A stretch of 64,000 bases of DNA, taken from a virus (taxonomy: Duplodnaviria; Heunggongvirae; Uroviricota; Caudoviricetes). Below are positions 5,251-60,416 of this stretch, piece by piece; within the stretch, counting starts at the first letter, position 1; each line of letters opens with the position of its first letter. The notes under the pieces were generated by a model that worked only from the letters and a program-made list of their open reading frames with translations, did not search any database and had not been told where the DNA came from. Location of the stretch: IMG/VR virus record IMGVR_UViG_3300013126_000009, one strand, 5' to 3'. The position numbers and the translations under genes were made by a program.

Positions 5251-5964
5251 TTATTTACTGAAGATGTTGTAGGTTTTACTAGCGGAGGTGATATTACCAT
5301 CAATATCTGTGGTCTTGGTAGTTTCAATTGCATACCCGACCAATTTATCACCCATTTCTTTGAACATATCGATTAACAGGTAAACGTTACCACTGGTATT
5401 GTCTTTATTTTTCATATTGTTAAGTACTTCACCCATTTCACGTCTTAGATTTTCGAAGGTATTCTTAATATCATTTGCGTTCCATTCTTTGCCGTCAACC
5501 ACCCCATCTTTAGCGTCAATCAGCATTGCTAATGATTGTGCGTCCACGTTGGTTTCATTTGCATACCCTAGCACTATGTTTAAGTATTCTGGGTCTATGT
5601 TTATTGGTTCACCACCTGCGGCCATACTAGCTGTTGATACCATAACTAATGCTACCATAACTGTAAGTATTACCAGTGCTTTAATTAGGTTTGGGTATTT
5701 ATCGTATAGGTTTTTAATTTTACCGATTATCCAATTTAACATTTTGCCTATTTTATTTCCGTATTTTTTTAGGTCATTAAAATAGCTTTTAAGTTTGTTA
5801 ACTGTTGTACCCACGAAATTAATTAATTTATCTTCCATACCTTCGTTAAGTTGTTTTAGATTATTGAAGAATTCGGATTCTGATATTATTCCGTTCATAT
5901 AAGCGTCTATTTTATATTCATCATTTGATGCTATAATGTTTTCGTATATCGGTAAAAGTTTCAT
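5251..5964 (-). CDS. Hypothetical protein with internal hydrophobic helix; putative virion/head protein
   Basis: MKLLPIYE leader, LNE motif, then a TM-like segment. Confidence 0.6.
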   Translation of the reverse strand: MKLLPIYENIIASNDEYKIDAYMNGIISESEFFNNLKQLNEGMEDKLINFVGTTVNKLKSYFNDLKKYGNKIGKMLNWIIGKIKNLYDKYPNLIKALVILTVMVALVMVSTASMAAGGEPINIDPEYLNIVLGYANETNVDAQSLAMLIDAKDGVVDGKEWNANDIKNTFENLRREMGEVLNNMKNKDNTSGNVYLLIDMFKEMGDKLVGYAIETTKTTDIDGNITSASKTYNIFSK

Positions 5965-5970
5965 TAATAA

Positions 5971-6546
5971 CTATAATAGTTTTTTGGATATATTCTTATA
6001 TTCAATAAGTTTTTTTCTTAATTGGGTTTTAATCGAGTTTGTTTCATTGGTTATTTTGGTATTGAGTTTATTGAACACATATCTATGGAAGTCATCGTAG
6101 GACATATTAGGTGCGATTGTCATTATTGGTGAGGTTCTGATTTCCAGATTCATATTAAGTGGTTTACCCAATATTTTAGCGGCCATATATCTATGGTGAC
6201 CATCTTCTAAGTAGAATCCTTTCTTATGTTCCTTATCTTCTCGGAATGTGACATCTATGGGTTCTGACAAGTTTATTTTTTCGGCCCATTTCTTTGGTGT
6301 GAGTCCGCTCTGTCGTATTTCCCATTTAACATTTTCCAAGTCATCTTTCCATTTAATCTTTAGTTTGTCTGGGGTTATTGTTGTTAAATCATCTTCTGAG
6401 AATCCGTGGGCCAATCGGTCCAATAGGTCGATGGGTATGCCACCGCTTCTCAATAGTTGTTCATCAGACTCGAACTTTGAAATGAATTTTTTAAGTTCTG
6501 GTATGAATTTCTCATCACTGATATTTAAACCTTTATATTTTATCAT
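5971..6546 (-). CDS. ParB/Srx-like domain protein
   Basis: PIDV...LEDGHHRYMAA motif. Confidence 0.65.
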   Translation of the reverse strand: MIKYKGLNISDEKFIPELKKFISKFESDEQLLRSGGIPIDLLDRLAHGFSEDDLTTITPDKLKIKWKDDLENVKWEIRQSGLTPKKWAEKINLSEPIDVTFREDKEHKKGFYLEDGHHRYMAAKILGKPLNMNLEIRTSPIMTIAPNMSYDDFHRYVFNKLNTKITNETNSIKTQLRKKLIEYKNISKKLL

Positions 6547-6578
6547 ATGATATCAATAATATTGGATGTTCATCTATA

Positions 6579-7627
6579 ATATTAGCTTTTTGGATATTTT
6601 TGAGTTTATCTATTTTTCTAATTTTTGTTTATCAATTAGGGTTGATGAATTGTGCAAATTCTCCACTTTCTAGTCCGTCTGGTGCTGCGTTTTTATTTAC
6701 ATATGAGAATTTTAGATTTTTATCACCGACTTTCATTGAGCATTGGATGTAGGTTATTTTTTCTAGGTTCAAGTTTTTAAATTCATATGCGTTTTCTATC
6801 GCGAAGATTTCTTGGGCTGCTTCTTGGTTTTCCATGTCAAGCAATCTTTTGGGCATTTTGGTTTCGGTTGAGGTTGGTGCTAGGCTGAATATGTAGTTAA
6901 CTTCATCTGGTGTGAGTTCAGCGATATCATCTTGATAATTGAGGAAGTATTTTGTTTTGCCTTTTTTAACACCTTCTCTTTTATTATAGATTGCTAATCG
7001 TTTGGTGCCAGTGGTCTGGTGTTGTTGGAATGGTGTACCTTCTATGTTTTCCCATCCTTGGCCTCTTGGGTCATTCGGGTCTATTTTGCCACCGTCTGAC
7101 CATTCAATTCCGTATTTATCATAGACTTTTTTGACGTCTGCGTCTTTATCGGCTTTATTTTTTATATTACCCCATTGGATTGTGAAGCTTTTGGTTGAAT
7201 AAATCTTAGATGGTATTGATTCACCTTTAATGGTTTTTTGTGCGAATGGATTTTTGAATGTTTTTCCGCTATCTTTTGCTGTTTTCCATTCTTCTGAGTT
7301 TACCATGTCAGTGAAGGCTCTGTTTCCTAATTTTCTGGCGATGTCTTCAAGGGTTGACATATCTTCATTTTTTATAGTAACGTTTGTTTTGACGTTATTT
7401 GTGTAACCGACAGTCATGAACCAACTATCATTTGGTTGGTATTTTGAGAACATTTTAAGCAATGTTTCAGGGTTATCTGTGGTTTCCCCTAGGAATTCTG
7501 CCATTGAGATTCTTTCTTCGGACAATAGGTTTTCTTCTTCATTGATGAAGAAACCTTTAGTTTGCAGGTAACGTTGTTCAGCTAATATATTAGCTTTTTG
7601 GATATTTTTGAGTTTATCTATTTTTCT
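6579..7627. repeat. 41-bp exact direct repeat (6579-6619 and 7587-7627)
   Basis: atattagctttttggatatttttgagtttatctatttttct; encodes RKIDKLKNIQKANI on the - strand. Confidence 0.9.
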
Positions 7628-7630
7628 CAT
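6632..7630 (-). CDS. Hypothetical protein with a leader ending in INE/LSE
   Basis: 332-aa ORF; ATATTTAT on the - strand at 7649-7656. Confidence 0.7.
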   Translation of the reverse strand: MRKIDKLKNIQKANILAEQRYLQTKGFFINEEENLLSEERISMAEFLGETTDNPETLLKMFSKYQPNDSWFMTVGYTNNVKTNVTIKNEDMSTLEDIARKLGNRAFTDMVNSEEWKTAKDSGKTFKNPFAQKTIKGESIPSKIYSTKSFTIQWGNIKNKADKDADVKKVYDKYGIEWSDGGKIDPNDPRGQGWENIEGTPFQQHQTTGTKRLAIYNKREGVKKGKTKYFLNYQDDIAELTPDEVNYIFSLAPTSTETKMPKRLLDMENQEAAQEIFAIENAYEFKNLNLEKITYIQCSMKVGDKNLKFSYVNKNAAPDGLESGEFAQFINPN

Positions 7631-7690
7631 AATAATAATTGTTTAATTATAAATATTGATTATTTTCTAAATGTTTGGTATATTTGTATT

Positions 7691-12575: not shown

Positions 12576-15059
12576 TTAAAGAAATTTTCTTAATTTAAGA
12601 CGGATTCGATTTTTTGATTCAAATAATTTATAGTTTGTGAAATATGTTGGTATATCAGCAATTTTAATGAATCCTTCGTATTCTTTATTTCGCTTTTTAT
12701 CGTACATGGATACATAAACACTACCATCCATCTTGAATCTTTGTCGGTCAAAAATAATTTCAACCAAATCATTTTCAATCTTTGTTGCCATTTCTGGTTG
12801 TTTAAGACCCTTCAATGTGTTGCGCAATGACATTATTATTTCTTCCTTGCTCTGTTTGTTGGTATCGTCTTCATTATAATCCATCTCATCATCCTCAATC
12901 AAATCATCAGCTTGGTCTTTAATGAAATTAACTATACTTTGGTTATCTGGTGCCATATCATTGTCATCAACCATTTCCCATATTTCATCTGAGTACTTTG
13001 GTACGTCATCATATATCTCCAAGAAGTCTTCTAAGACATAATCTAAATCGGTCGTGAAATCACCATCTTCGTCTGCACTGAATATACTAGCACCACCATT
13101 GATTATAAATGCGTTAACATTCATTGATATATCTAAAGTGTCTCTACGATAGTTTGCATACTCAAGTGTAATTCTATTATTTACCTTATTACATATCTCA
13201 CCCCACTTTTCATTTTTAGCTTCATAGCTGGCCTCGTTCATTTCCTCACTGATATGATTTAAAATGTCATCTTTAAGGCCCTTAGCTTCAAATGCTTCAT
13301 CGAGTGCTTTCACTTCGGGTTTTATACCATAACTCTCAATTGTTTCCCTGAATTCTGAGTCACCCAAAGCGCTTTCCAAATAATTTTCATAGTCCTCTTC
13401 TAATCTATCTGAATCACCATCATAAATATCATAATAATAGTCATCCCATCTTGAATCATTGAAACGCATTAGGAAATTTGATGTTTCATCACTAATAGCT
13501 GATTTTGGAACATCGTTAATATTAATCATATCACCAGTAAAATCAATATCAATATCTTCTGGTACCAATTGATTTAATCTATCAATTGCTTCTGAATTAT
13601 TATCCGAAGCTGACATGATTAATTTATTTATTTCTTTTTGTTCTTCAGTAAAAACGTTATGAACACCATAACGTTCCAAAAACTCAACTTTATCAACCCC
13701 ATTTTCAACTAAAAACCCTTTAAGTAGTCCCTTATCCATTCTTTGAACGTATTGACTTATCTCACCATCATCCAAAGTCGATAATTCGGTATAGCTTAAC
13801 TTGAACCTACGTCTACCCCAATTACTGGTTGCATCCATAAACTGTTTATATTTATCCATAATGGATTTTTTATAAACTTCCATTAATTCATCGTTATTTT
13901 GAATCATTTCAAACTCTCGTTCCGTTAATGATTTACCGTTTTCTAATTTAAGGCGTATTACACGTCTAAGTTGTTTATCGTTCAATAAATCTGTTTGATT
14001 TGCACCGCGACCAATAAAATAGCCAGCTTCAATCAAACTTTCTTTAACTGAATCACTTAATGATTCAACTTGGGAGTTTGAAATTGTGTGATTATTAGCA
14101 ACATAATCACGTATAAAATCTTCTGGTGTTACGTTTGATTCATTGACGACCAAATCTCTGGTCATGTCCTCAATATACCGTTGAAGGTTATCATTATTAT
14201 ATTGGCGTTTTAATAGGCTGGCATAATTACGCTCTTCATTTGTTATTTCCCTATATGGGAAATATTTTTCTTTACCCTTAAGGTTTGGAATGGCTTCTTC
14301 AACGTTAGACCATTGCATTGCCAGTTGTGGTCCACCATGACGTTCACCACTATTACTTCTGTCAGCAATTGCATACCCTCTGGAACCATAATTCATTATA
14401 ACCAACTTATGTTCGTCACCTTCAACGTTTTTTTGTAATACATGGTATGGTGTTGCACCATAGTTCAAACGATATGTATTATAATAATTCAATTCTGGTT
14501 TACCGATACACCAAGATTCACCAGAACCATATTTAACACATTTTGCTTTTGTTTTTGAATCTAATATCAGAATATCATCATCTTCATATACGATATCTGC
14601 TTCATCAGGTTCATATATACCAGCTTTTGTGGATATAGTTCCAGATTCCAACCATTTTTTATTATTTACCAAATCGACCAAACCACTCTCAATCTTTTTC
14701 ATTGAGAACCGTTTAGCGTTATCACCCAAATTTCTAACATTAGCAATATAAGCATCCAAATAACGTTTGGCATTCTGCCTATTTTCGGCAAAGGCTTTGG
14801 TTTTAATCATTTTATCTAAGGTACCTTCATACCATTTCTTGAATACACTATCCAACTGCTCCTTACTTTTTAGTTGTTGGATATTACCAAAATAGTCTCT
14901 AAATAATCCAGCAATGGCCAATTTATTTAACGTGTCCTCACTTTTATCACCAATTCTGTTAGTTGTGGCATCAATTACTTGCCTACCATATAATTTGTCC
15001 TCTTCCAATGGCAACATCTTGCCGTCCAGATTTTCAAAAATATTACTTAATTTTAACAT
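12576..15059 (-). CDS. Large PcfJ-like domain protein; putative head cargo
   Basis: CVKYGSGESWCI motif; MLKLSNIFE leader and LFE-SKNRIRLKLRKFL tail. Confidence 0.6.
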   Translation of the reverse strand: MLKLSNIFENLDGKMLPLEEDKLYGRQVIDATTNRIGDKSEDTLNKLAIAGLFRDYFGNIQQLKSKEQLDSVFKKWYEGTLDKMIKTKAFAENRQNAKRYLDAYIANVRNLGDNAKRFSMKKIESGLVDLVNNKKWLESGTISTKAGIYEPDEADIVYEDDDILILDSKTKAKCVKYGSGESWCIGKPELNYYNTYRLNYGATPYHVLQKNVEGDEHKLVIMNYGSRGYAIADRSNSGERHGGPQLAMQWSNVEEAIPNLKGKEKYFPYREITNEERNYASLLKRQYNNDNLQRYIEDMTRDLVVNESNVTPEDFIRDYVANNHTISNSQVESLSDSVKESLIEAGYFIGRGANQTDLLNDKQLRRVIRLKLENGKSLTEREFEMIQNNDELMEVYKKSIMDKYKQFMDATSNWGRRRFKLSYTELSTLDDGEISQYVQRMDKGLLKGFLVENGVDKVEFLERYGVHNVFTEEQKEINKLIMSASDNNSEAIDRLNQLVPEDIDIDFTGDMININDVPKSAISDETSNFLMRFNDSRWDDYYYDIYDGDSDRLEEDYENYLESALGDSEFRETIESYGIKPEVKALDEAFEAKGLKDDILNHISEEMNEASYEAKNEKWGEICNKVNNRITLEYANYRRDTLDISMNVNAFIINGGASIFSADEDGDFTTDLDYVLEDFLEIYDDVPKYSDEIWEMVDDNDMAPDNQSIVNFIKDQADDLIEDDEMDYNEDDTNKQSKEEIIMSLRNTLKGLKQPEMATKIENDLVEIIFDRQRFKMDGSVYVSMYDKKRNKEYEGFIKIADIPTYFTNYKLFESKNRIRLKLRKFL

Positions 15060-15070: not shown

Positions 15071-15643
15071 TTATTTAAATAAACCATACGGTATGACCGT
15101 TGGTCTAACTTTACTATCTGATTTAATTTCTTCACCACCACTTCTTTGTCTTGATTTCCATTCTTTAAGGAATTCGATTAAACTAACAAGTAAATCCTTA
15201 TCAACTTTACCATCAACTCGATTACCTTTATCGGCAAAGACCCAGTTCATTGCATTCTCAACATTTTTAATCCTATCACCATAATTCAAACTGTCAACTT
15301 CATTGTTCAAATTTAAAACCAAGCTATCATCAATTAGTTTTAAAGCATTATCAAAATCAACATTACTTAAGTCTTTAATCGGTCTATCCAAACGCAAATG
15401 TTTTCTTAAAAAACGTATACCGTCATTGGTTATATCACCGAATTCGTGTTGTGATGCCACTTTAGGCGTTGGCTCCTTTTCCTTACCACTTTTTTCGGCA
15501 CCAAAAGACGGTGATGACATAAGTGAACCCAACATGGCACCACCAATCATACCCTTCTTCAAAGCTGAACCGAAATCCTCATCAATAATTTCACCTTCGG
15601 TTATTAACTTATTCCTTAGTTTGTATTTTATAGATTCACTCAT
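15071..15643 (-). CDS. Hypothetical protein with tagged leader and hydrophobic segment
   Basis: Start moved to 15643 (MSESIKYKLRNKLITE), behind ATATTTAT at 15660-15667 (-). Confidence 0.65.
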   Translation of the reverse strand: MSESIKYKLRNKLITEGEIIDEDFGSALKKGMIGGAMLGSLMSSPSFGAEKSGKEKEPTPKVASQHEFGDITNDGIRFLRKHLRLDRPIKDLSNVDFDNALKLIDDSLVLNLNNEVDSLNYGDRIKNVENAMNWVFADKGNRVDGKVDKDLLVSLIEFLKEWKSRQRSGGEEIKSDSKVRPTVIPYGLFK

Positions 15644-15734
15644 TAAATAGTCATTTATAATAAATATGCCCTCATAATAACTAATGTTGATTAACTGTAA
15701 TTTAAACATATTTATAGTTAAATAAATTGAAGTA

Positions 15735-16778
15735 ATGATACGAAAATTATTAAAAGAAAATTTAACACGGAAATTATATGAAAACACTTTGAGCGAAAAC
15801 GTTGAAACTTCGGCAAGGGGTTTGGTTAATATTTTCGAGACGTTTAATAAACTATCTGGAAATCTAAAAGAGGATATTGAATATATAACAAATTTTAACC
15901 AACTGCTTAAAGAGGATAGTGAGTTTGACCCCTTTTCACATTTACAACAAACTGGTAAGATAAATACCGAAGAAGATTGTGTGTTAACAATATCTGAACC
16001 CAATTCAAAATTAGGGCAAATAAATGCGCCATCACTGTCATTACCAGCTGGTTACACATGCCCATTTGCTGATATATGTAAAAGTTTTGCACATCCAACT
16101 GGTGGTAAATTCAAATCGAATCAAAAATCAATTAAGGATGTTGGAGATATCAGATGTTATGCTGCCAGTGCTGAAATGACCTATCCAAATGTAAGAAACC
16201 TCAGATGGCGAAACTTTGACCTTATAAAAGACACTTATAAATCAAACGGGGTTAATGGTATAACAAATCTTTTATTGAAATCAATAAACCATTATGAAAC
16301 CAAAAAGGGTAAAATAACTGTATTTCGAATTCACGATTCGGGTGATTTCTTTGAACAATATTATCTGGATGCTTGGATTGAGACTGCAAAGCAACGACCC
16401 GATATTCTTTTCTATGCTTATACAAAGTCATTACCGTTTTGGAAAGAGAGGAAATCTGAAATACCTAAAAATCTTAGGTTAATAGCCTCAGAGGGTGGTA
16501 AAGCTGATGAGTTAATTGATAAGGAAGGTTTCAGAAAAGCTGTTATAGTTAAAGATACTGGTGAAGCTATACGAAAAAAGCTTAATGTTGATGTAAATGA
16601 TTTCTTGGCCGCATTCGGAGATAAAGATTTCGCATTATTATTACATGGTGTACAATCAAAAGAAAGTGGAGCAACATCACACGCTAAACAAAATAGTAAA
16701 ATAATAAAAGACGCAGCAAAATCAATGAGAGTCAATCCAAATGAAATTGTACGACTTTTGAAGTTATATACTAACTAA
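15735..16778 (+). CDS. GP88-family (radical-SAM-like Fe-S) protein
   Basis: SLPAGYTCPFADIC...CYA, RIHDSGDFF, FYAYTKS. Confidence 0.75.
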   Translation: MIRKLLKENLTRKLYENTLSENVETSARGLVNIFETFNKLSGNLKEDIEYITNFNQLLKEDSEFDPFSHLQQTGKINTEEDCVLTISEPNSKLGQINAPSLSLPAGYTCPFADICKSFAHPTGGKFKSNQKSIKDVGDIRCYAASAEMTYPNVRNLRWRNFDLIKDTYKSNGVNGITNLLLKSINHYETKKGKITVFRIHDSGDFFEQYYLDAWIETAKQRPDILFYAYTKSLPFWKERKSEIPKNLRLIASEGGKADELIDKEGFRKAVIVKDTGEAIRKKLNVDVNDFLAAFGDKDFALLLHGVQSKESGATSHAKQNSKIIKDAAKSMRVNPNEIVRLLKLYTN

Positions 16779-16779
16779 A

Positions 16780-17364
16780 ATGTCAAATATTCGAATAAAG
16801 CTTAGAGAGCAATTAATCAATGAACAGGTCAAACAGCTTTTCAAGGAAGCAAACGATGACCTAACACAATGTGATTGTTGCAAATATTTCGATATGGACA
16901 TGGAAAGGTTTGGTGGTTTTGAGCATCCGATTTACTATGCTCTTAACAAATCCGAAATCCATGAACTTAAACTAATATCACCAGAAAATTATCTTAAGAC
17001 GGTTGCGGATAACTTTAAAATGCACTACCATGAAATGTTTAATTATATAAACCAAGAATTGGTGGATAAATACGCCAATGACATGAAGAAAGGTGATAAA
17101 TTCCCATTACCTTACTACACGGTGAATAATAGGCAACAAGAAGGTAGACATAGAGCGTTAGCACTCAAAAAATTAGGTTGTGAATATATGCCAGTTGTTA
17201 CTGTTACAGAACTAACAGATAAAGAAAAAGAAAATTTCGCAAACAAATATAAAGATATGTCGACAAATGAACTTAACCAAGCGTTTGTGGATTTAGGTTA
17301 TAAGGGGGTGTCTGGACTCGATATAAGAGAACTTAAAAACTACGTTCGATACAAAGAATTTTAA
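16780..17364 (+). CDS. ParB/Srx-like domain protein
   Basis: YANDMKKGDKFPLP...QEGRHRALA. Confidence 0.65.
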   Translation: MSNIRIKLREQLINEQVKQLFKEANDDLTQCDCCKYFDMDMERFGGFEHPIYYALNKSEIHELKLISPENYLKTVADNFKMHYHEMFNYINQELVDKYANDMKKGDKFPLPYYTVNNRQQEGRHRALALKKLGCEYMPVVTVTELTDKEKENFANKYKDMSTNELNQAFVDLGYKGVSGLDIRELKNYVRYKEF

Positions 17365-17398
17365 TTAGTGAATATATATTTATTAAAAAACAAAGATA

Positions 17399-17620
17399 AT
17401 GAAAAGAGTTAAACTGACAGAATCTCAGCTTGAGATGTTAAAATCAATCGATGGTAATGACGCTAAGCGTTTGGCTGATAAGATAAATGATGCTATTATT
17501 AGTATTGATGAGTCTATGAGCTATAAGGATTTTGCTAATGCTGTTGCCATTGTATTGAAAGGACAATACGGTAAGCATAATTTTGAGGGGTTTTTAGCTC
17601 AACTTCAATCTAAGCTTTGA
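17399..17620 (+). CDS. Small protein with KLTESQL leader
   Basis: ATATTTAT at 17376-17383. Confidence 0.65.
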   Translation: MKRVKLTESQLEMLKSIDGNDAKRLADKINDAIISIDESMSYKDFANAVAIVLKGQYGKHNFEGFLAQLQSKL

Positions 17621-17871: not shown

Positions 17872-18198
17872 ATGGATAATGTGATTGATTCCCATATTAC
17901 AATTGTATTACTTGAACTATTGGTTCATTATTATGATAGTTATGGCAAAAAGGTTGGTAGTTTTGATAGTTATTGTGGTTATATTACAAATTATTTAAAT
18001 GGTAATGTTAGCACTTTACCAAATGTACAAAGACATACTTTTGACTATTTGGTTGGTCAAGTTGAGCGGCAATATGGTTTACCAACTGATATCGCTATTG
18101 AATTGGTTATTGATTTGTTTATCAATTGTTATTGGAAAAATATTTATTCTTATCAACATGAGATGAATCGGTTTTTGTATAATTCAGATATTTACTGA
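17872..18198 (+). CDS. Hypothetical protein
   Basis: Host-type promoter 17836-17867 directly upstream. Confidence 0.55.
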   Translation: MDNVIDSHITIVLLELLVHYYDSYGKKVGSFDSYCGYITNYLNGNVSTLPNVQRHTFDYLVGQVERQYGLPTDIAIELVIDLFINCYWKNIYSYQHEMNRFLYNSDIY

Positions 18199-18199: not shown

Positions 18200-18544
18200 A
18201 TGAAGAGAAAATTAATAATAACAGAGGGTCAAATGCGGTCATTGGTAAAACATTTGAACGAATCGGATGTTTATACTGAAACCGTTAAACGAATCGTTGA
18301 TGACCTTAATCTGAATTATGAGCCAGCTGTTGTTACAGAAAGACGTGGTGGTGAATATCATGAATTACCAGCATTTAAGATAAAAGCTGATAATACCTTA
18401 ACTAATGGTGAATATCTTTTACATTATTTGAAAAGAAAGCATGAGGGTGTTGGTAAGAAATTTTTAGCTCAATTGATTAGGGATTGGGTTGATGGTAAGA
18501 TTGAAAACTATCGTTTATCTAGTAATGTTGGTATGCGAGAGTAG
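18200..18544 (+). CDS. Hypothetical protein with KLIITEGQ...LNE leader
   Basis: ATATTTAC at 18188-18195. Confidence 0.7.
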   Translation: MKRKLIITEGQMRSLVKHLNESDVYTETVKRIVDDLNLNYEPAVVTERRGGEYHELPAFKIKADNTLTNGEYLLHYLKRKHEGVGKKFLAQLIRDWVDGKIENYRLSSNVGMRE

Positions 18545-18553: not shown

Positions 18554-18868
18554 ATGAAGGCGAAGATACGGGAGATATTGAAGGATACGTATGGTGATTT
18601 TTCTACTGTACTGGAAGTTCAATATGAGAACGTAATGTTACAAAAATTATCTAGTAAGAATAGGAACCGAGTAAGGGAGTGGTTAACTTACAATCAAGTA
18701 ATTTTGGAATTACGTGATAATTTAAAAAATTCGTTAAAAACCAAAGAATTACAGTATCGGTTAACGGATGGTGAAAACCCAAATATTGCTTGTTTGGACG
18801 TTATGGGAGAATTAAAAAATGAATCACCAGAATTAACTAGATTATACGAAAAAATTATGAATTTTTAG
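18554..18868 (+). CDS. Hypothetical protein, paralog of the next gene
   Basis: ELQYRLTDGENPN. Confidence 0.7.
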   Translation: MKAKIREILKDTYGDFSTVLEVQYENVMLQKLSSKNRNRVREWLTYNQVILELRDNLKNSLKTKELQYRLTDGENPNIACLDVMGELKNESPELTRLYEKIMNF

Positions 18869-20873: not shown

Positions 20874-20939
20874 GACTTTTATATTTTTTAGCATATTTAT
20901 TATTGAAGAATAATATCTTAAGCTTAAAAAATATTAAAA

Positions 20940-28214: not shown

Positions 28215-28316
28215 TTTAGACGTTGATAACCGAATGTTACGAATCGGTTTTGGAAAGCATAATGGAAATTGGTTCTTTAGGGTTGATTTGTGGTTTGTTG
28301 GTTATAGATTTAAACC

Positions 28317-42007: not shown

Positions 42008-42067
42008 TTAATAACCTAAATTATAACATATTAAGCCTTTTGGCATATTTATATGTAAAGGCTTTGT

Positions 42068-47100: not shown

Positions 47101-47341
47101 TAAGATAAGTAATTTATTGACTGAGAGGGCTGAATTGTTGACCAATGACCTTAGAGCTAAGACTAAAAAATATCAAACAAATTATTATAATAGGTTGGTT
47201 GAATCTTTGGATACCAATAGTCTTGAACAAAAAATATTAAATAACAAGGTTAAGGTTTTTGATAAAGGTTTAAAACTAAATGAGGAAATTGATTCAGTTT
47301 TAAGGGAAATTGATAAACTTTCAACTGACAAAGGTGAATAA
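44183..47341 (+). CDS. Portal protein (T4 gp20-like) with intein
   Basis: YGT|SILEKARR, EDAMLVYRVTRAPERRVF, IDTLPG, ALRVPK. Confidence 0.92.
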   Translation: MANNKTIFQTLTNMFGPYGVEPERVSKKYSLGNSELLRTTSKEEYETQKLQARQNKYLSNQWVKVENEIFQKSIQYEITRIGAYSDFENMEFYPEIAATLDILMEESTTVNDIGRVLNIYSESPRVKGILEDLFFNRLDVHVSLPMWIRNMCKYGDNFLYLNTDDKRGVTGVKQLPNFEIERREGGIYDVVSANLNGVERGSNKDDKVKFFWRGRDLEFMNWQVAHFRLLGDDRRLPYGTCLKGDTRINTEFGVEEIKDIKVGTKVWSFNTKTQEKELSPILDKIMSGTKEVFKISTRHNFIDASKEHKILVATEFGEFIYKNVCDLKIGDLLVLNKNEHTNKTILIDKSNPLENKNGWFNNINHIPDIVTEEFAQLFGFLIGDGWLTSNNSCVEFALGTDSETNNFYISLLEKFSGHKVVVGDKQVTLRSKLLKTILERMGFFGKSHEKRIPSWVFEMGVDLQKAFVAGLMDADGWATKDQWVIGLHIELNNKPLIEDLKILLQRIGYKSGSIRSRVRKEPIIEGRQIKNVKESHIITFFDSYLTQMKKYEFKNRKTDNFILEPIQSIESIGNHNTYDIYVENSNHNFYANNVVVHNSILEKARRIWKQLLLSEDAMLVYRVTRAPERRVFKVYVGNIDDEDVQPYVNEIANRFKRASIIDPKTGQIDLRYNQLANDQDYFIPVREEGAATPIDTLPGASNLSDIADIEYLQRKLFTALRVPKAFLGFDEPKGEGKNLALLDIRFARTINRIQQAVLQELNKIAIIHLVLSGLEDEIDNFTITMNNPSTQSEMLRIQNLQTKVTLVKDATSDIGNGFSVMSLTKARRSILGWSDEESKQDFLEQRMEKAASAELENTANVIKHTGIFDKVDKLYGDIEVAKQGGAAPEGGDEAGGPSGGGGGGFGGGGLGGGDIDFGAGDLGEFGEAEGETPEAGGETPEAGGEIPEAGGETPEAGGETPEAGGGEIAENLDKISNLLTERAELLTNDLRAKTKKYQTNYYNRLVESLDTNSLEQKILNNKVKVFDKGLKLNEEIDSVLREIDKLSTDKGE
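44903..45976 (+). mobile_element. Intein with LAGLIDADG homing endonuclease (358 aa)
   Basis: CLKGDT start, VVHN|S end, LFGFLIGDG and FVAGLMDADG motifs. Confidence 0.92.
46970..47074 (+). repeat. 5 x 21-bp tandem repeat (GE[T/I]PEAG) in the portal C-terminus
   Basis: ggtgaaactcctgaagctggt repeated. Confidence 0.9.
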
Positions 47342-49065: not shown

Positions 49066-49791
49066 ATGATAGGTATGTCAAATAAATATAATATTATCCA
49101 ACCTAATGTCTTAAGAGCCAATGAAACTGGATTTGGTTATCTGATTGAGCATGACGCTGGTTATATCTCACCAGAAGACAAAAGAAATTTACCATTCATC
49201 AATGAGATGAAAAAACTTGAGTCTGGTGACCGAGTTATAACTGAACCATATTATGTCTATGCCGTGTTACAAAAATATGGTGTGAAGAATCGTAATGGTC
49301 GTGTCTATCCTGAAGACATTTTAAAAAAACAAGTCACAGTATATCAAAAATTAGTTGATGAGCGAAGAGCCATAGGTGAATTGGACCATCCAGATTCCAC
49401 TGTAATTGCTGGTGATAGAGTATCACACAATATTGTTGAAATGTGGTGGGAAGGTAATGTGTTGATGGGTAAATTGGAAATTCTAATGACACCAGGTTTT
49501 ATTAACCTAGGAATTGCTTCAACTCTTGGTGACCATGTTGGTAATCTATTAAGACATAAAATTAAAATCGGTGTCTCATCAAGAGGTGTTGGTTCCGTTG
49601 AAGATGTGCATGGTGTACAATTGGTACAAAACGATTTTGAATTGGTATGTTGGGATGTTGTTACAAACCCTAGCACCCCTGGTTCATGGATTTTTCAAGA
49701 CATGAATAAGTCAAATGAATTCAAATCAGAAAAGATTAATGAGAATAAAAATAAAATAATTAAAGGTCTTGATGATTTCCTTTTGGGATAA
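49066..49791 (+). CDS. Prohead maturation protease (T4 gp21-like)
   Basis: NRNGRVYP, GELDHP, SH, GVSSRGVGS, DVVTNPS. Confidence 0.92.
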   Translation: MIGMSNKYNIIQPNVLRANETGFGYLIEHDAGYISPEDKRNLPFINEMKKLESGDRVITEPYYVYAVLQKYGVKNRNGRVYPEDILKKQVTVYQKLVDERRAIGELDHPDSTVIAGDRVSHNIVEMWWEGNVLMGKLEILMTPGFINLGIASTLGDHVGNLLRHKIKIGVSSRGVGSVEDVHGVQLVQNDFELVCWDVVTNPSTPGSWIFQDMNKSNEFKSEKINENKNKIIKGLDDFLLG

Positions 49792-50172: not shown

Positions 50173-51429
50173 ATGGAAAAAAACAAAAAAACAATTGCAG
50201 ATGAAGCGCTAATGGACATTGAAGTCATTAAAGCAGCTTTAACAGAAAACGCAAAAGAAATACTTCGTTCTGTGACCAGAGAAGAAATTGATGATGTTAT
50301 TAAGGAATCTTTAAATGAAGAAGATTTCGAAGAAGAAGAGGTAGACGCTGAAATGTCTGATGAAATGCCTGACGATGAGGAAGGTGCTGAAGACATGGAG
50401 GATATCGATGCTGACTCTGAAGGTGAAGAAGATGAAGACGACATGGAAATCACTGACGTTGAAATCGAAGATGAGCCTGAGAGTGAAGAAGACTCAGAAG
50501 ATATGGGCGATATTGAAATGGATATCGATGATGTTGAAATGGGTGATGATAGCGAAGAAATCGATTTAACAGATGCTTCTGACGATATGGTAATTTCTGT
50601 TTACAAGGAATTATCAGGTGAGGATGAAATTGAAGTTGTTGGTGATGAGATTCACTTAAACGTTTCTGAACCAGGTGAGTATATCCTAAAACCAAAATCC
50701 GCTGGCATCGATATGGATGCTGATGTTGAAATGGATACCATAGCTATGGAAGAAGAGGAGATGGAAGAAGGGATGTACAACGAAGGTGAAGAAATGGATG
50801 AAGTTGTTTACGAAGTTTACATGGATGAAGAAGAAACTATGGAAGAATCTTACGAAATGGATGAAGAAGAAACAATGGAAGAAGGTGAAGAAGTTATGGA
50901 AGAAGAAGAAATGATTGATGAAAAAATCAGAGTAAACCATGTACAAGGTAAACAAGCTGGTAATGAACATCAACCAAAAGTTCTTGGAGCTAAAAACCTT
51001 AAAGAATCAAAGACTTCAGAATATGAAAAATTGTTGGCTGAAGCAAACAAACTTAAGAAAGAAAATGAATTGTTCAAGCAGAACCTTTCAACTTTCAGAA
51101 AGATGTTGGCTGAAACAGCAGTTTACAATTCAAACCTCACAAACGTAACAAGAATTTTCTTGGAGCATGCAACAACAAAATCTGAAAAGCAAGCAATTAT
51201 CAAGAGATTCGATGATGAAGTTAAGACAGTAAAAGAATCAAAAGCTCTTTATAAAAAGATTGTTGGTGAACTTGGTTCAAAACCATCTTTGACCGAGAGT
51301 GTAAGTAATGTTGATAAAAACATGACTTCAGGTTCTTCAAATCTTAATTCTCAAACTGCTTACGTAGATAATGAAACTTCTCGAATCAAAGAATTGATGG
51401 AGAGAGTTGAAGGTAGAAAGTTACTATAA
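50173..51429 (+). CDS. Prohead core/scaffold protein
   Basis: Very acidic plus coiled coil; lies between protease and MCP. Confidence 0.8.
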   Translation: MEKNKKTIADEALMDIEVIKAALTENAKEILRSVTREEIDDVIKESLNEEDFEEEEVDAEMSDEMPDDEEGAEDMEDIDADSEGEEDEDDMEITDVEIEDEPESEEDSEDMGDIEMDIDDVEMGDDSEEIDLTDASDDMVISVYKELSGEDEIEVVGDEIHLNVSEPGEYILKPKSAGIDMDADVEMDTIAMEEEEMEEGMYNEGEEMDEVVYEVYMDEEETMEESYEMDEEETMEEGEEVMEEEEMIDEKIRVNHVQGKQAGNEHQPKVLGAKNLKESKTSEYEKLLAEANKLKKENELFKQNLSTFRKMLAETAVYNSNLTNVTRIFLEHATTKSEKQAIIKRFDDEVKTVKESKALYKKIVGELGSKPSLTESVSNVDKNMTSGSSNLNSQTAYVDNETSRIKELMERVEGRKLL

Positions 51430-51477: not shown

Positions 51478-53280
51478 ATGTCACACTTATTAAACTCTGG
51501 TTCAGTTGGAAATATCGGACTTAACCACATGAAAGAAGTAAGGAAAAAAGTACAAGAAAAGTGGGATTCTACAGGCTTCCTTACTGGTCTTCAAGGACAC
51601 ATTAAAGAAAACGTTGCTCAGTTATTCGAAAACCAAGCTGGTAGCTTGTTGACCGAAAACACTGATGCTACTTCTTCAGGTTCTTTTGAAACAGTAGTAT
51701 TCCCAATCGTAAGAAGAGTATTCTCTAAACTTCTTGCAAATGATATCGTATCAGTACAAGCAATGAACTTGCCAATCGGTAAATTGTTCTTCTTTGTACC
51801 TGTTACATCTTCTAGAGTAGACGCATCTGGTGCTGCTGGTGACCCTTATGGTTCTGTACCATATAACGGTTCTTACTCAGCACATACTGGAATGACTCAA
51901 CTACCTGATTGTGTGGTGAATGGTGCTTCTTGCCCATCTACTAGCTTTTTAGCTAAAAACCTTTATGATTTATTCTACAACGATGGTTTGTTTGATAACT
52001 CAAAGGGTACCTTAACTATTAAGTCATTTACTGGTGCTACTCAAGTTACTAAAGTCGCTTTGGGCGCTAACGGTGAGTTTAGTGTAATCGCTCCAGCGGC
52101 TACTTTAGCAACAGCAACTGATGGTTCTGTACGTGAAGTTATTTTACGTGTATCAGGATTTAGCTCAACAAATAAAGGTCGTTTAACTGGTCCAGATGGT
52201 AATACTATGGATACTGAGTCTTTCTTGGCCTCATTAATGGTATTTAACGCTGGTTCAGCAATACTTGACGCTAATGGTGATGAAATTATCCCGAATTTGG
52301 GTAAAGTACCATTTAGGGTTGTAACTCAAAAATACGGAAAGGGTATTGTTGAATATGATGACATCTGTGACAGTGCTGGTCACATCTATTTAGGTGCTGA
52401 CCTTACTCATCCAGTTGATATCAATGCTGCTACGACAACTTTCGATGGTTACATCGGTATGTCAGCCACAACTGCTAGTGCAACAACATTTGCTGTAGCA
52501 TGGGCTGAGTACGCAAGCCTTGAGTTCGAAACTGAAATGGGTGAAGTTTCTTTCAGACTTGACGATGTTGTTGTGTCTGTAGAAGAAAGAAAATTGAGAG
52601 CTACTTGGTCTCCAGAATTGGCACAAGATGTTAGTGCATTCCACAACATCGATGCTGAAGCTGAATTGACAGCGTTGCTTTCTGAGCAAATTGCATCTGA
52701 AATTGACCGTGAAATCCTTAGAGATTTGAGAAGTCTTGGTGCATGGCAAATGAGATGGGACTATTACGGATGGAGAAAAGCGTCTAGCGCATCTAACGCT
52801 TACACCCAGAAGGATTGGAACCAAACTTTGATTACCAAAGTTAACCAAATCTCAGCTCAAATCCATAAGTCAACACTTAGAGGTGGTGCTAACTTCATCG
52901 TAGTATCTTCAGAGATTTCTGCAATCTTCGATGACCTTGAGTACTTCCACGTAAGTGATGCTTCTCCAGAGCAAGACCAATACAACATGGGTATTGAAAG
53001 AATCGGTTCATTGGGAGGACGTTATCAAGTATACCGTGACCCATATGCACCAGCATACTCAATGATTATCGGTCACAAAGGAAAGTCATTGTTGGATACA
53101 GGTTACATCTACGCACCATACGTGCCAATGCAACTTACCCCAACTATGTACAATCCATTCAACTTCGCTCCAGTGAAGGGAATTATGACACGGTATGCGA
53201 AGAAAAGCGTGAATAACCGCTTCTACGGACATGTTCGTGTAGATGGTGTTCCAACATTCAACGTAGCTGAATTGAGATAA
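51478..53280 (+). CDS. Major capsid protein (T4 gp23-like)
   Basis: LFENQ, VSVQAM, RKLRATWSPELAQD, YAPYVP, GIMTRY. Confidence 0.95.
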   Translation: MSHLLNSGSVGNIGLNHMKEVRKKVQEKWDSTGFLTGLQGHIKENVAQLFENQAGSLLTENTDATSSGSFETVVFPIVRRVFSKLLANDIVSVQAMNLPIGKLFFFVPVTSSRVDASGAAGDPYGSVPYNGSYSAHTGMTQLPDCVVNGASCPSTSFLAKNLYDLFYNDGLFDNSKGTLTIKSFTGATQVTKVALGANGEFSVIAPAATLATATDGSVREVILRVSGFSSTNKGRLTGPDGNTMDTESFLASLMVFNAGSAILDANGDEIIPNLGKVPFRVVTQKYGKGIVEYDDICDSAGHIYLGADLTHPVDINAATTTFDGYIGMSATTASATTFAVAWAEYASLEFETEMGEVSFRLDDVVVSVEERKLRATWSPELAQDVSAFHNIDAEAELTALLSEQIASEIDREILRDLRSLGAWQMRWDYYGWRKASSASNAYTQKDWNQTLITKVNQISAQIHKSTLRGGANFIVVSSEISAIFDDLEYFHVSDASPEQDQYNMGIERIGSLGGRYQVYRDPYAPAYSMIIGHKGKSLLDTGYIYAPYVPMQLTPTMYNPFNFAPVKGIMTRYAKKSVNNRFYGHVRVDGVPTFNVAELR

Positions 53281-53422: not shown

Positions 53423-55144
53423 ATGGGTAAGAAAGTCATACTAAGCGATAAAGATATATCTGATATTATCAGACTATATAAAGATGATACAATTGGTGTT
53501 GAATCGTTGGCTAAGAAGTTTAATGTTGGTAAATTAAAGATAAAGTCAGTTTTAACGGAAAATAATATACCAATTAAAAAACGTGGCGCTCAAACAACCG
53601 TTGGTAACAGTTCAGAAATTGAAAAATCACATGTTATTATGTATGAAACAAATAATGTTGATAAAAAATTAGTTGCTATATGTAAAATAACTGATACAGT
53701 TTTTGAAGATGTGAATAATCGTTCAGGGGCATTAACCAATCATATTTTATCAACATATGGTGATGTTCCAATACCAACAAATACATATCAACGAAAAAAA
53801 TATGAAAGAGAGTATGGTAAAAAATGGTTTGAAGAGTATTTTGATATTAAAGAAATAGATAAACCTAAAACGAGAAAATGTAAGTTATGTGATTGGGAAA
53901 CCGTAGATATTGATAATAATTCTGGTAGTTTTGAACAGCATTTGGTCAATAATCATAATATTACATTATTAGAATATCTGGAGGGTTTTCCTGAAGACAT
54001 TAAATACCATTCAAAATATGATAAACTAAAACACAGATTAAACCCCAATAATCATATTATATGTAAGGTATGTGGTAAAAAAATGGGTTATTTAACAGCG
54101 ACACACTTATCTACACACAACTTGACTTTAACTGACTACAAGTTAAAATATCCTAAAAGTGACGTATTATCTAACGAATATAGGGATAATTTAAAAGAGC
54201 GTTATGATGAACATTTAAAACATTACGAACCAACTTACTCAACTAAGCCACAGGAGGAAATTTATGAATATATTAAAAGTTTAGGTTTTAAAGTTAAAAA
54301 GAATGATAAAACACTATTAAACGGTACCGAAATAGATATTTTAATGAAGGATAAGCTCATTGGTATCGAATACAATGGTTTATATTATCATAGAGAAGGT
54401 ATGGGTAAAGATAGAAACTATCATTTAACTAAAACTAAATTAATGGAAAGTTGTGGTTATAGTTTGATACATATATTTGAAGATGAATGGTTAAATAACA
54501 AAGATTTAATTCTTAACAAGATTTCACACTTACTGAATGTTAATAATATGAAGTCAATAGGTGCCAGAAAATGTAATATAAAACAAATAGACGCATATAT
54601 TAAATCAGATTTTTTAAATACCAATCATATTCAAGGTAATGATAACTCAAACATTTATTATGGTGCATATTATGACAATATATTAGTTGCTATTATGTCT
54701 TTTACAAATAAAAGGAGTATGAATGGTAAATCTGATAGTTATGGTGAATATGAATTATCTAGATTTGCAACGAATATTAACTATAGGGTCGTTGGTGTCG
54801 CTGGTAAGTTATTAAAACGATTTATCAAAGATTATCAACCCAATAATATAATAAGTTTTGGTGATAGGCGATGGGTGCTTAACGGTGAAGAAAATATGTA
54901 TACTAAATTAGGTTTTAAATTGACCAAGACTTATTCACCAGATTACAAATATTATAATCCTAAAATAGCCAAAAATAAACGTTTTCATAAATTTGGTTTT
55001 GGTAAATCGTCTTTAAGAAAGAAATATCCAGAGTTGGATTTCACAAAGACTGAGAAAGAGTTGATGACTGAATTGGGTTATGATAGAATTTGGGATTGTG
55101 GTTTATTCAAATATGAACTCATATTAAATGGTAACCAACAATAA
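53423..55144 (+). CDS. Hef-like free-standing homing endonuclease with C2H2 fingers and C-terminal GNAT/Mom-like region
   Basis: CKLC..H..H, CKVCG..HL..H, EIDI..IGIEYNGLYYH, IFEDEW, ELSRFA, RIWDCG. Confidence 0.7.
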   Translation: MGKKVILSDKDISDIIRLYKDDTIGVESLAKKFNVGKLKIKSVLTENNIPIKKRGAQTTVGNSSEIEKSHVIMYETNNVDKKLVAICKITDTVFEDVNNRSGALTNHILSTYGDVPIPTNTYQRKKYEREYGKKWFEEYFDIKEIDKPKTRKCKLCDWETVDIDNNSGSFEQHLVNNHNITLLEYLEGFPEDIKYHSKYDKLKHRLNPNNHIICKVCGKKMGYLTATHLSTHNLTLTDYKLKYPKSDVLSNEYRDNLKERYDEHLKHYEPTYSTKPQEEIYEYIKSLGFKVKKNDKTLLNGTEIDILMKDKLIGIEYNGLYYHREGMGKDRNYHLTKTKLMESCGYSLIHIFEDEWLNNKDLILNKISHLLNVNNMKSIGARKCNIKQIDAYIKSDFLNTNHIQGNDNSNIYYGAYYDNILVAIMSFTNKRSMNGKSDSYGEYELSRFATNINYRVVGVAGKLLKRFIKDYQPNNIISFGDRRWVLNGEENMYTKLGFKLTKTYSPDYKYYNPKIAKNKRFHKFGFGKSSLRKKYPELDFTKTEKELMTELGYDRIWDCGLFKYELILNGNQQ

Positions 55145-57114: not shown

Positions 57115-57121
57115 CGATTAA

Positions 57122-58003: not shown

Positions 58004-58043
58004 ACTTTAACTATTATTAAATATAATCAATTACGTTTTTTTG

Positions 58044-58334
58044 TCAAGAGAAATCTAAATTACCATTACAAATTGTAACGGTTGAACAACGATATTCGTT
58101 ATCTATTCCGCTTAAATAATATATATCGCCACTGTAACATTCATTATTATAATGGTATGGTTTGAAACCTGTGAATTTGGTATCAAAATCAATATATTTG
58201 CCCAATAATTGACTAAGTGTATCAGTAGCGTCTGAACAATTTTCGAATAATAAATTATCCAAATTATTATTTATTAGTTTTTCAATTTCCCTTCCTCTTT
58301 CAGTTGTAATCATGTCATAACGTTTTAATTTCAT
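58044..58334 (-). CDS. Hypothetical protein
   Basis: Overlaps the upstream gene end. Confidence 0.5.
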   Translation of the reverse strand: MKLKRYDMITTERGREIEKLINNNLDNLLFENCSDATDTLSQLLGKYIDFDTKFTGFKPYHYNNECYSGDIYYLSGIDNEYRCSTVTICNGNLDFS

Positions 58335-58998
58335 CTAGCAATTCAAAAACCCATTCTGGTGGTTCTTCATTTGGATTATTTTTATTCATTGGAGAATCTT
58401 TGACCCACTCAGCCACATCACCAAGAATATTAAAGTCATACTTATCATAGTAACCATTATTTGTTATTATGTCAAGCCATTTATTCCAAGTTGGTTTATA
58501 ACCCATATTGACCAAATCAATAATAAACCCTTTAATAATTGGGTCATTAATATTTTCCAGTTCCGATTTGTCAATGTGTTTTGATTGTGATTTTTTATAA
58601 TCTGAATAATTAAAATTGAATAGTTTATCCAATTCTTGTCTCATTTTTGCGCCTGATTGTGTTAAAGATGTTCGTTCAAGATTTTCATAACCGTATTTCT
58701 TTGCCAAATAAATCATTAATATTTTCCCATAACCTTTACCACCTTCAAGTGCTTCAATCAGTGATATTGTAATTTCGTCATTATAGTCAACATAATCAAC
58801 CTTAGCCAATGGTTTATTGGTTTCTTTATCATACATTATTGCCGTATAATTATCTTGGCCATCGATATGTCCAGTATGTTCATCAGTGAATTTATAGTCA
58901 TTTAGTATTGCAAAAGGTTTACCTTTCTTAACTTTTGACCAATCCTCTTGATATAGTTTATGGAGTTCTTCGTTTAATATTTTTCTTACTCTACTCAT
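58315..58998 (-). CDS. GNAT-like protein with KILNEEL leader
   Basis: ISLIEALEGGKGYGKILM acetyl-CoA-binding-like motif. Confidence 0.55.
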   Translation of the reverse strand: MSRVRKILNEELHKLYQEDWSKVKKGKPFAILNDYKFTDEHTGHIDGQDNYTAIMYDKETNKPLAKVDYVDYNDEITISLIEALEGGKGYGKILMIYLAKKYGYENLERTSLTQSGAKMRQELDKLFNFNYSDYKKSQSKHIDKSELENINDPIIKGFIIDLVNMGYKPTWNKWLDIITNNGYYDKYDFNILGDVAEWVKDSPMNKNNPNEEPPEWVFELLDEIKTL

Positions 58999-60416
58999 TA
59001 CTGACCATATCTTAATTCTGATTGACTTACAATGTCAAAAAATAACACCTCATTTAAAGTAGTAACCTCTAAATTACTTGTTACCTTTATATCGACATAG
59101 TATGTATTAGGTATCATACTGGCAGTATCTAATAAAAAGTAATTATGGTTATTAGCCAATTCAATTGGTTGATAGTCAATTATTGTCAGGTCATTTCTAC
59201 CTTCTTTAACATATACTCTATATTCAGCGCTGTCAATTCTTTGTTCTTGATTAACGGTGTATGGTATTTTAGTTTTAAGTATTACTTTTCTAATATCACC
59301 ACGTTTGATTCTTTCACCTCTTTGTATTCCAGATGCCACGACACCTACTTTCTTTGGTAATGAATCGTTATCACCAATGTTGTACCAACCCATTGAGTCT
59401 TTCAATGCAAAATCTAATGTGACGTTAGGTCTATTGATACCATTTATTGTTATACCAGACCATACATCGGTAAACATGAAATCTTCAGTATAATCATTTG
59501 TCGTTGGTACGTTTATGTCAATTTTATAAACGCCCTTTGTTACATGTGTAACGTCACTTGGTGTATATGCTGAGAATACGTCACCATTATAATCATAAAC
59601 GGTTACCGCTGGTATTGAATCCAAGTTTGTTGGCGTACCACCCAAATTAACATATAGATATAACTCATTGTCTTTATCTAGATAGAAATCGTGTCTATCA
59701 TCATTTATATGGTCAGCATACGTTGTTTCAACAAATGGTTCATAAATACTTTGTGTGTGTCTGGTAAAGAAACCGACATATTGATATTCAACAGTACGTA
59801 AATTTTCATACTCTTGTTGATACGCTAATACTAGACCATTATTTGTATTACCAGTTAATAGACCATTAACATAATCGGTAATATCCATTTCAAGGTTTTC
59901 ATTACCTAATTCAAAATGTTGTGAAGCTATTGTGATGCCACTGGTAGCTCCAGTTACAACACCTGATTCTGTCCACGCTGATAGTGTTGTTGCTTGAAAC
60001 CAGTTGGATGGGCTTGCAGCCAATGCTGATTGACCCAATACGTAAGTACAATTAGCATAATCATAGCCAACACCTTCATCCCAATATTGGTTTATTGGAA
60101 ATAATATTAAATCAAATGAAGATGAACGCTTTTTACCATCACACGTATCCTTGCCCAATAATTCTTTATCTAATGACCCAGTATTGGTCATTTTAAGCGT
60201 ATGTGTCATCTTAGTTATATCTGGATAGGTTCCACCAGTATAAAACGATTTAAGGCGCTCTACGTCAAAATAAAACAGGTATCTGCTATATGTTTGCGTC
60301 AATGTACTACCAGTTCCACCACCATAATATAATTCGGTTACTGGGTTTCTGGATGTATTGGTGTATTCATCCAGTATTATTGTATTGTCTTTGTCAAAGA
60401 AAGTTCTAATTACCAT
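58998..60416 (-). CDS. Putative virion structural protein
   Basis: SRYLFYFD, WDEGVGYDY, MDITDYV; late-type motif at 60433-60440 (-). Confidence 0.65.
   Translation of the reverse strand: MVIRTFFDKDNTIILDEYTNTSRNPVTELYYGGGTGSTLTQTYSRYLFYFDVERLKSFYTGGTYPDITKMTHTLKMTNTGSLDKELLGKDTCDGKKRSSSFDLILFPINQYWDEGVGYDYANCTYVLGQSALAASPSNWFQATTLSAWTESGVVTGATSGITIASQHFELGNENLEMDITDYVNGLLTGNTNNGLVLAYQQEYENLRTVEYQYVGFFTRHTQSIYEPFVETTYADHINDDRHDFYLDKDNELYLYVNLGGTPTNLDSIPAVTVYDYNGDVFSAYTPSDVTHVTKGVYKIDINVPTTNDYTEDFMFTDVWSGITINGINRPNVTLDFALKDSMGWYNIGDNDSLPKKVGVVASGIQRGERIKRGDIRKVILKTKIPYTVNQEQRIDSAEYRVYVKEGRNDLTIIDYQPIELANNHNYFLLDTASMIPNTYYVDIKVTSNLEVTTLNEVLFFDIVSQSELRYGQ

Follow-up and report, generated by a model that had tools for sequence, protein, structure and literature searches.

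The window studied here, a 64,000-nucleotide stretch of DNA from a tailed virus (Caudoviricetes; IMG/VR record IMGVR_UViG_3300013126_000009), encodes about fifteen unrelated, presumably late proteins, each of which is built from a variable body and a short amphipathic helical peptide placed at the N-terminus or, less often, at the C-terminus. These peptides (hereafter "tags"; "leaders" when N-terminal, "tails" when C-terminal) are real, and they belong to at least five distinct classes, not to one. The modular architecture of the proteins, a fixed motif at the junction between tag and body, a prohead protease of the T4 type, a conserved site in the capsid protein and a promoter motif shared by tagged genes are all established. 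We think that the tags probably correspond to the capsid-targeting sequence (CTS) of phage T4, i.e. that they load proteins into the capsid, are clipped off there by the protease of the Peptidase_S77 family and let the bodies be injected with the DNA, in a form expanded to many classes and cargoes.

The window (32% G+C) is probably part of the genome of a T4-like jumbo phage of Bacteroidota. A near-DNA search with 24 kb of it against cultured phages found no close relative, and, judged by the capsid protein, Flavobacterium phage immuto is the nearest cultured phage (39% identity). At least 599 relatives are present in IMG/VR, some as complete contigs of 295-412 kb, and it is on account of this size that we consider the phage itself to be probably jumbo.

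Tags of several classes on unrelated bodies

All N-termini encoded in the window and in 80 related loci were compared without any preset pattern, pairs with homologous bodies being excluded, and the list of classes was completed by later pattern scans and homologue searches. Class A is an IKKLLRE-type leader, class B an RLTESDL-type leader of about 25 residues, class C a KANLLAE-type leader, class D/S an RIKELM-type leader that resembles the C-terminal tail of the head scaffold, and class G a PIYEN-type leader. Class E is a recurring leader of the related loci (N-terminal in 13/13 cases), and class H, of the KLFEEF type, was found only in homologues. The nine leaders and both tails listed by an earlier, sequence-only reading of the window are all present at the genes to which it had assigned them (Table 1). 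Its proposal of one portable basic tag was not borne out, and is wrong in detail because at least five classes exist.

A class A pattern, defined post hoc, matches the window 11 times, 5 of these matches lying among the 15 N-terminal residues of a protein and 2 among the 25 C-terminal ones; one of the five, at the N-terminus of a Clp-like protein, is really a Clp_N repeat and was rejected as a leader. In the 80 related loci, N-terminal occurrences number 37 for the same post-hoc pattern (7.2 expected) and 66 for a slightly wider one (10.7 expected), the latter on 34 body families; for class B they number 36 (4.5 expected), on 22 body families. Hidden Markov models (HMMs) were built for the tags from the related loci without the window, and scored against a null of 20 shuffled proteomes. 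They found again, above all 20 shuffles, the leaders of genes 16780 and 15735 (class A), 20940, 18200 and 17399 (class B), and 6632 (class C); scores were weak for genes 18554, 40769, 58315, 15071 and 36068. On a larger scale, at least 3,232 protein clusters with a class B leader were found in a metagenomic set of 5.8 billion proteins; among the best 120 of these, the leader is N-terminal in 110/120 and a Pfam domain is present in none. When class B leaders were sought regardless of capsid type, 236 IMG/VR loci were recovered.

The sequence-only reading had delimited its tags by [LIV]-x-E and had expected an enrichment of this motif. The tag classes are indeed enriched above chance, whereas the bare motif is not (30 N-terminal sites against 27.6 expected); the lack of enrichment over background, which that reading had itself named as evidence against it, is thus found for the bare motif and not for the tags. 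One could go further and argue that there is no tag system at all, and that a composition rich in K, E, L and I, AAA-rich gene starts that favour translation and the picking of patterns account together for what we see. The behaviour of the bare motif would fit this explanation, as would several degenerate window leaders that score near the shuffle background (15643, 36068, 40769), but we find it hardly credible, and it is already contradicted by the 6- to 8-fold N-terminal excess over 22-34 unrelated families, by the recovery of window leaders above all shuffles with HMMs built from other phages, by the abundance of class B clusters with their predominantly N-terminal leaders, and by the junction motif described below. 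It also fails to account for a leader that BLAST matches by itself, with an E-value of 7e-7, or for the occurrence of the same motifs at C-termini, which rules out an effect of translation starts.

Tags and bodies combine freely. The body encoded by gene 5971-6546, which has a tail in the window, has one homologue with an N-terminal class A leader (locus L012) and another with a class G leader (locus L034), neither of them with a tail. In the case of gene 6632-7630, BLAST aligns the class C leader, and no other part of the product, with three otherwise unrelated proteins (from L022, L004 and L011). Among homologues of the GNAT-like body (58315-58998), some begin with a class A leader, others with one of class H and others without any leader; in certain fusions, the body follows a module resembling that of gene 5971. 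The homologues of the ParB/Srx-like body (16780-17364) show leaders of class A, B (which may even be in tandem), G or H, and some lack one. This body is also found inside long multi-domain chains, one of which contains Phage_lysozyme and ART-PolyVal, a type of repertoire that is predicted to be injected (Iyer et al. 2017, PMC5512222). In one protein of L064, the class B motif is at the C-terminus. The leader of gene 15071-15643 (minus strand) becomes apparent once the true start is placed at an internal ATG at 15643, with ATATTTAT 16 nt upstream at 15660-15667; two fused relatives of this gene (P0175, P0176) begin with the same kind of leader.

The exchange of leaders is best seen in the family of the 827-amino-acid protein (gene 12576-15059), in which 120 relatives exhibit 83 distinct leaders before one conserved body start. 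A stricter parse gives 74 distinct leaders, namely 53 of class A, 1 of class B, 1 of the scaffold-tail type and 19 others, the last including the window protein's own kind. Of the 83 leaders, 81 have a [LIVM]-x-E that stops 0-2 residues short of the body, an arrangement found in 8% of control windows. The C-terminal tail of the window protein is kept in orthologues down to about 50% identity, and the C-termini of the paralogous family carry either the class A motif (P0178) or the scaffold-tail motif (P0194, P0198, P0208). More generally, leaders end on the body side in h-h-x-Glu (h, hydrophobic), the same motif as at the capsid site, and in class B conservation ends at the Glu. Among tagged families, 85% have h-h-x-E within residues 8-32, compared with 24% of the untagged, a contrast which is partly circular.

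In relatives, the tagged genes lie in variable islands adjoining the capsid gene, and many have the promoter motif just upstream. These two facts might suggest that the shared starts are recombination cassettes, made of promoter and first codons, which shuffle genes between phages and of which the peptide is a by-product. We consider this most improbable, and it is already contradicted by the comparison of the window leaders at the nucleotide level: their DNA is only 42-56% identical and the same residues are mostly specified by different codons, so that the peptide pattern is conserved and not the DNA. The copies at C-termini are a further argument against cassettes.

Most of the proteins that bear the tags consist of one module with a tag of its own, and fusions of the polyvalent kind are seen only among homologues elsewhere. 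Nearly all lack a Pfam family. The bodies had been described as diverse enzymes, and GP88 is enzyme-like by Pfam (Pfam GP88 matches residues 92-310 of the product of gene 15735-16778), as are two others at the level of fold. The AlphaFold2 model of the product of gene 16780-17364 has an overall predicted local distance difference test (pLDDT) score of 91.5, the body being above 90 and the leader forming a lone helix (residues 2-28) at about 60-65. All its top Foldseek matches are ParB-N, Noc or Srx (sulfiredoxin), with weak E-values of 0.015 and up, and a PDB profile search gave SbnI and Noc, which suggests a ParB/Srx-like fold. In the same way, the model of the product of gene 58315-58998, with a leader helix (residues 2-15) at a pLDDT of about 54, comprises a helical domain and a domain that appears to be GNAT-like, Foldseek matching GNAT only. 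The label "PcfJ-like" given to the 827-amino-acid protein found no support in Pfam and was dropped. A search of IMG/VR gave no confirmed relative of the GP88 protein.

The four cysteines of GP88 raise the question of whether the leaders could be recognition sequences for a modifying enzyme such as a radical-SAM protein, as in ribosomally synthesized and post-translationally modified peptides. This has very little chance of being correct: the C-x3-C-x2-C motif is in no window protein, GP88 itself bears a leader, and no enzyme co-occurring with the tags was found beyond the protease and a Clp-like ATPase.

Head module and promoter motif

The head genes are of the T4 type (Table 1). An intein lies within the portal gene (Intein_splicing at residues 256-598, with a LAGLIDADG_3 endonuclease at 463-532), and this explains the portal's length of 1052 amino acids. 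The scaffold, for which no match was found among cultured phages, has a C-terminal tail that is kept in about 70 relatives and is preceded by L-N-E or L-I-E; the sequence-only reading had noted an SLNE site in the scaffold. The LLTE site which it had noted in the major capsid protein (MCP) stands. It is a conserved [LI]-[LIM]-x-E at residues 57-60 (L-L-T-E in the window) that aligns with the cut in T4 gp23, F-L-T-E/A. Since T4 gp21 cuts after L/I-x-E (PMC9026906), the window MCP is likely to be cleaved after L-L-T-E, as its conserved and T4-aligned site suggests. A gp24-like vertex protein was considered as a possible carrier of a class A leader and was dropped, each complete relative having only one Gp23-family gene.

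In the related loci, an unbiased comparison of C-termini revealed a similar amphipathic motif in the portal, the post-portal protein, the protease and the scaffold, and this motif of head-core proteins may be a common docking element. Directly 3' of the capsid gene, the window has an HNH/homing endonuclease gene (53423-55144, plus strand), at a place where many relatives have tagged cargo.

The motif ATATTTAT is not raised in copy number (23 copies against 18 expected), but 16/23 copies are followed, 6-52 nt downstream and on the correct strand, by a start codon. It precedes the terminase, the protease and the scaffold gene (the latter heading the scaffold/MCP unit) at 6-52 nt, mostly 14-19 nt, and it is presumably a late promoter. 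Host-type Bacteroidota promoters (TAnnTTTG just 5' of the start) are found in front of early-looking genes. It had been claimed that most of the tags lie behind ATATTTAT and that host-promoter genes lack them, and this is borne out: 15/36 genes are tagged in units headed by ATATTTAT against 0/59 elsewhere (p = 5e-8), and the association holds for a strict set of 7 tags (p = 7.6e-4). In relatives, the odds ratio for the association of tags with ATATTTAT is 2.0 (p = 7e-4), with a depletion of host-type promoters 5' of tagged genes.

Table 1. Tags and head genes of the window (positions in nucleotides; aa, amino acid residues; HMM scores against the shuffled null)
Feature	Gene	Position	Strand	Observations
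Class A leader, aa 1-16, GP88-domain protein	15735-16778	15735-15782	+	HMM 7.5 bits, above all shuffles; ATATTTAT at 15708-15715
Class A leader, aa 1-15, ParB/Srx-like protein	16780-17364	16780-16824	+	HMM 7.9 bits
Class A-like leader, aa 1-16	15071-15643	15596-15643	-	class A pattern at residue 5; weak HMM score, 1.8 bits
Class B leader	17399-17620	17399-17446	+	HMM 11.9 bits, null maximum 8.0; ATATTTAT at 17376-17383
Class B leader, aa 1-21, ending L-N-E	18200-18544	18200-18262	+	HMM 11.9 bits; ATATTTAT at 18140-18147
Weak class A-like leader	18554-18868	18554-18586	+	HMM 6.1 bits; 0.15 chance matches expected per proteome
Class B leader, aa 1-23, 59-aa protein	20940-21119	20940-21008	+	HMM 14.2 bits; ATATTTAT at 20893-20900
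Class C leader, aa 1-26	6632-7630	7553-7630	-	HMM 27 bits; ATATTTAT at 7649-7656
C-terminal tail, aa 169-191	5971-6546	5974-6042	-	class A HMM 4.5 bits at the C-terminal end
Class G leader, aa 1-13	5251-5964	5926-5964	-	same 13-residue start on unrelated protein L034_12703
N-terminal leader, aa 1-21, ending L-E-E-D, 827-aa protein	12576-15059	14997-15059	-	varied leaders at same position in relatives
Basic C-terminal tail, aa 815-827, after L-F-E, 827-aa protein	12576-15059	12579-12617	-	conserved in orthologues
Candidate scaffold-tail-like leader, aa 1-31	33842-34666	33842-33934	+	weak; scaffold-tail HMM 6.5 bits, null maximum 6.3
Weak class C-like leader	36068-36514	36068-36133	+	HMM 3.4 bits; 0.5 chance matches expected
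Weak class A-like leader	40769-42007	40769-40813	+	HMM 5.4 bits; 0.2 chance matches expected
Class A leader, aa 1-18, GNAT-like protein	58315-58998	58945-58998	-	weak in window; orthologues have canonical class A leaders
Large terminase		42068-43873	+	phrog_2; ATATTTAT at 42045-42052
Portal, gp20 family, intein-interrupted		44183-47341	+	Pfam Portal_T4, Intein_splicing, LAGLIDADG_3
Prohead protease, T4 gp21 family		49066-49791	+	Pfam Peptidase_S77, E 4.4e-25; phrog_207
Very acidic head scaffold, gp22 position		50173-51429	+	between protease and MCP; conserved C-terminal tail 51376-51426
Major capsid protein, gp23 family		51478-53280	+	Pfam Gp23, E 2.7e-69; maturation site L-L-T-E at 51646-51657

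Probable loading into the head and rival explanations

The CTS on the internal proteins of T4 was reportedly described by Mullaney and Black in 1996. It is present on IPI-III and Alt and is removed by gp21, and 10 residues of it are enough for loading (PMC9026906, PMC3012670); the T4 internal proteins are diverse and have only the CTS in common (PMC3012670). We checked in the sequence of the T4 record that the CTS occurs twice. By analogy, we propose that the window tag would dock its protein to the scaffold core or to the inner shell during prohead assembly, that the Peptidase_S77 protease would then cut after Glu, releasing the body within the head, and that the body would leave with the DNA at infection and act early in the host. 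Docking, cleavage at the junction, packaging and injection are thus predictions drawn from sequence.

The likeness to T4 lies in the families of the protease (Peptidase_S77) and of the capsid protein (Gp23), in a short terminal peptide that is the sole common part of unrelated, fast-evolving proteins, in its hydrophobic-x-Glu end, in expression from genes that we take here to be late, and in effector-like bodies. The differences are also substantial. The window tags have no sequence similarity to the CTS and fall into at least five classes instead of one, they are longer (15-26 residues), helical and also C-terminal, and the 64 kb contain about 15 cargo genes, compared with 4-5 for the whole of T4, with thousands of tagged metagenomic families besides; and the system of the window is known from its sequence alone.

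In the jumbo phages phiKZ, 201phi2-1 and SPN3US, propeptides of head and ejection proteins are cut by gp21 homologues (PMC9026906, PMC7411985, PMC10052503); a protease resembling gp21 thus cleaves a large number of proteins of the head interior after Glu. Their motif is however S/A-x-E, and their propeptides are long, unlike the short tags common to unrelated proteins that we describe. The helix-turn-helix of the P22 scaffold, the C-terminal tail of the HK97 protease and the cargo-loading peptides of encapsulins dock proteins inside an HK97-fold shell; like the window tags, these are autonomous, short and transferable, with a flexible terminal position. No Glu-specific protease is known to remove these docking peptides, unlike what we propose for the window tags, and encapsulins are not known to have a portal, a terminase or DNA, whereas the window has a portal, a terminase and a T4-like head module. 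As regards a copy of the scaffold tail itself, the window offers a weak candidate (gene 33842-34666), while the case is clear in immuto, in which one leader agrees in most residues with the 15 that close the scaffold (score 36; highest control 27). Finally, phages and conjugative elements encode polyvalent proteins whose delivery along with the DNA is predicted (Iyer et al. 2017, PMC5512222). These proteins have the same repertoire of bodies (ParB/Srx, GNAT, ART-PolyVal, lysozyme), and homologues of window bodies are fused in such proteins, but the window proteins are mostly single tagged modules instead of one long multi-domain chain.

The sequence-only reading had already interpreted the window as a capsid-cargo system, and everything that can be seen in sequence as a prerequisite for such a system is present: a gp21-family protease, the gp23 site, portable h-h-x-Glu leaders, tags restricted to one type of promoter, and enzyme-like bodies. 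What had to be given up is the single basic tag and the use of bare [LIV]-x-E as its signature. In addition, Peptidase_S77 is present in 8/8 complete IMG/VR genomes with a class B leader (23 large contigs tested).

Several observations nevertheless weigh against loading and clip-off. The co-occurrence with Peptidase_S77 may reflect the shared ancestry of one clade, and a ClpB/C-like ATPase co-occurs equally (8/8). We found virion proteomics for neither this phage nor any relative. The tag HMMs gave no match to T4 IPII or IPIII, that is no similarity to the CTS, and the best T4 match, between class A and the N-terminal propeptide of gp24, has a score of only 1.5 bits and is not significant. The mimicry of the scaffold tail in the window is not significant either, the match of gene 33842 not being specific to its own scaffold, and several C-terminal tags follow an x-N-E that lacks a hydrophobic P3 residue. 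The window proteome, rich in Glu, Lys, Leu and Ile, contains 380 [LIV]-x-E sites with no overall N-terminal excess. Among cultured phages, the class B leader gave chance matches only. The closest complete relative (G025) has only about 7 strict tags in total, and another complete relative (G002) has 5 strict class B tags, from which it follows that tag load differs by lineage.

The alternative that deserves most attention is that the tags are docking helices for some other partner, such as a chaperone or the unfoldase of the ClpB/ClpC type that the phage itself encodes, the membrane or nucleoid of the host, or a site in the tail or baseplate, the Glu being just part of the helix pattern. Basic amphipathic helices have indeed a shape able to bind membranes or nucleic acid, and a ClpB/C-like AAA+ protein is encoded not only in the window (23735-26188) but also in the records L011 and L012 and in each of the 8 complete genomes that have class B leaders. 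We think this alternative unlikely all the same. A junction fixed at [LIVM]-x-E in 81/83 leaders is needed by a tag that is clipped off and not by a pure docking helix, and in immuto one leader copies the scaffold tail. Furthermore, the Clp gene lies behind a host-type (early) promoter, whereas all tags are in units which we assume to be late, and cultured immuto has leaders and an S77 protease but no AAA_2 protein. The absence of the Clp-like ATPase from this tag-bearing phage, despite the 8/8 co-occurrence, is the reason why we retain it as a tag reader only in the rank of a minor rival.

If we return to capsid loading, the classes of leaders (A, B, C, scaffold-tail, G, H) might further constitute a combinatorial address code, usable at either end of a protein and specifying different prohead sites or copy numbers; we offer this tentatively, as a possible reading rather than a likely one. 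Were it true, thousands of dark metagenomic families would be virion-delivered effectors of T4-like Bacteroidota jumbo phages, and the tags would list the injected arsenal of a phage from its genome. Even without a code, tags that load heads would provide a simple sequence rule for recognizing the injected proteins of a very large group of uncultured phages, injected proteins being the first phage factors to face host defences. The principle of capsid targeting known from T4, with a handful of proteins and one tag, would then extend to a modular system with many tags acting at either end, and such tags could serve for packing foreign proteins into phage heads.

Other genes of the window

The Clp-like gene discussed above (23735-26188, minus strand), which has a host-type promoter, encodes a double AAA+ protein of the ClpB/ClpC type (Clp_N, AAA, AAA_lid_9, AAA_2, ClpB_D2-small). 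A 478-amino-acid leucine-rich-repeat protein (19307-20743, plus strand), also with a host-type promoter, is encoded in the middle of the island of tagged genes. A P-loop open reading frame (ORF; 21211-21903, plus strand) overlaps a GNAT ORF (21879-22295, plus strand; Acetyltransf_1, E 9e-5), and the two may be a single gene expressed via a frameshift.

The left end of the window (1-4700, plus strand) is an early-looking block of small genes, each with a host-like -33/-7 promoter pair, and several of these genes encode lipoprotein-like signal sequences. A block devoted to nucleotides and polyamines (27070-29697, plus strand) comprises thymidylate synthase (27070-27963), DHFR (28836-29219) and AdoMet decarboxylase (29305-29697), the last being preceded by ATATTTAT. 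On the minus strand, a two-component pair consists of a sensor kinase with PAS and HATPase_c domains (30946-32178) and a receiver-only response regulator (30518-30949). Finally, genes 32274 and 33550 (plus strand) are paralogues that have in common their first residues and about 20 nt 5' of the start, the result of a local duplication.

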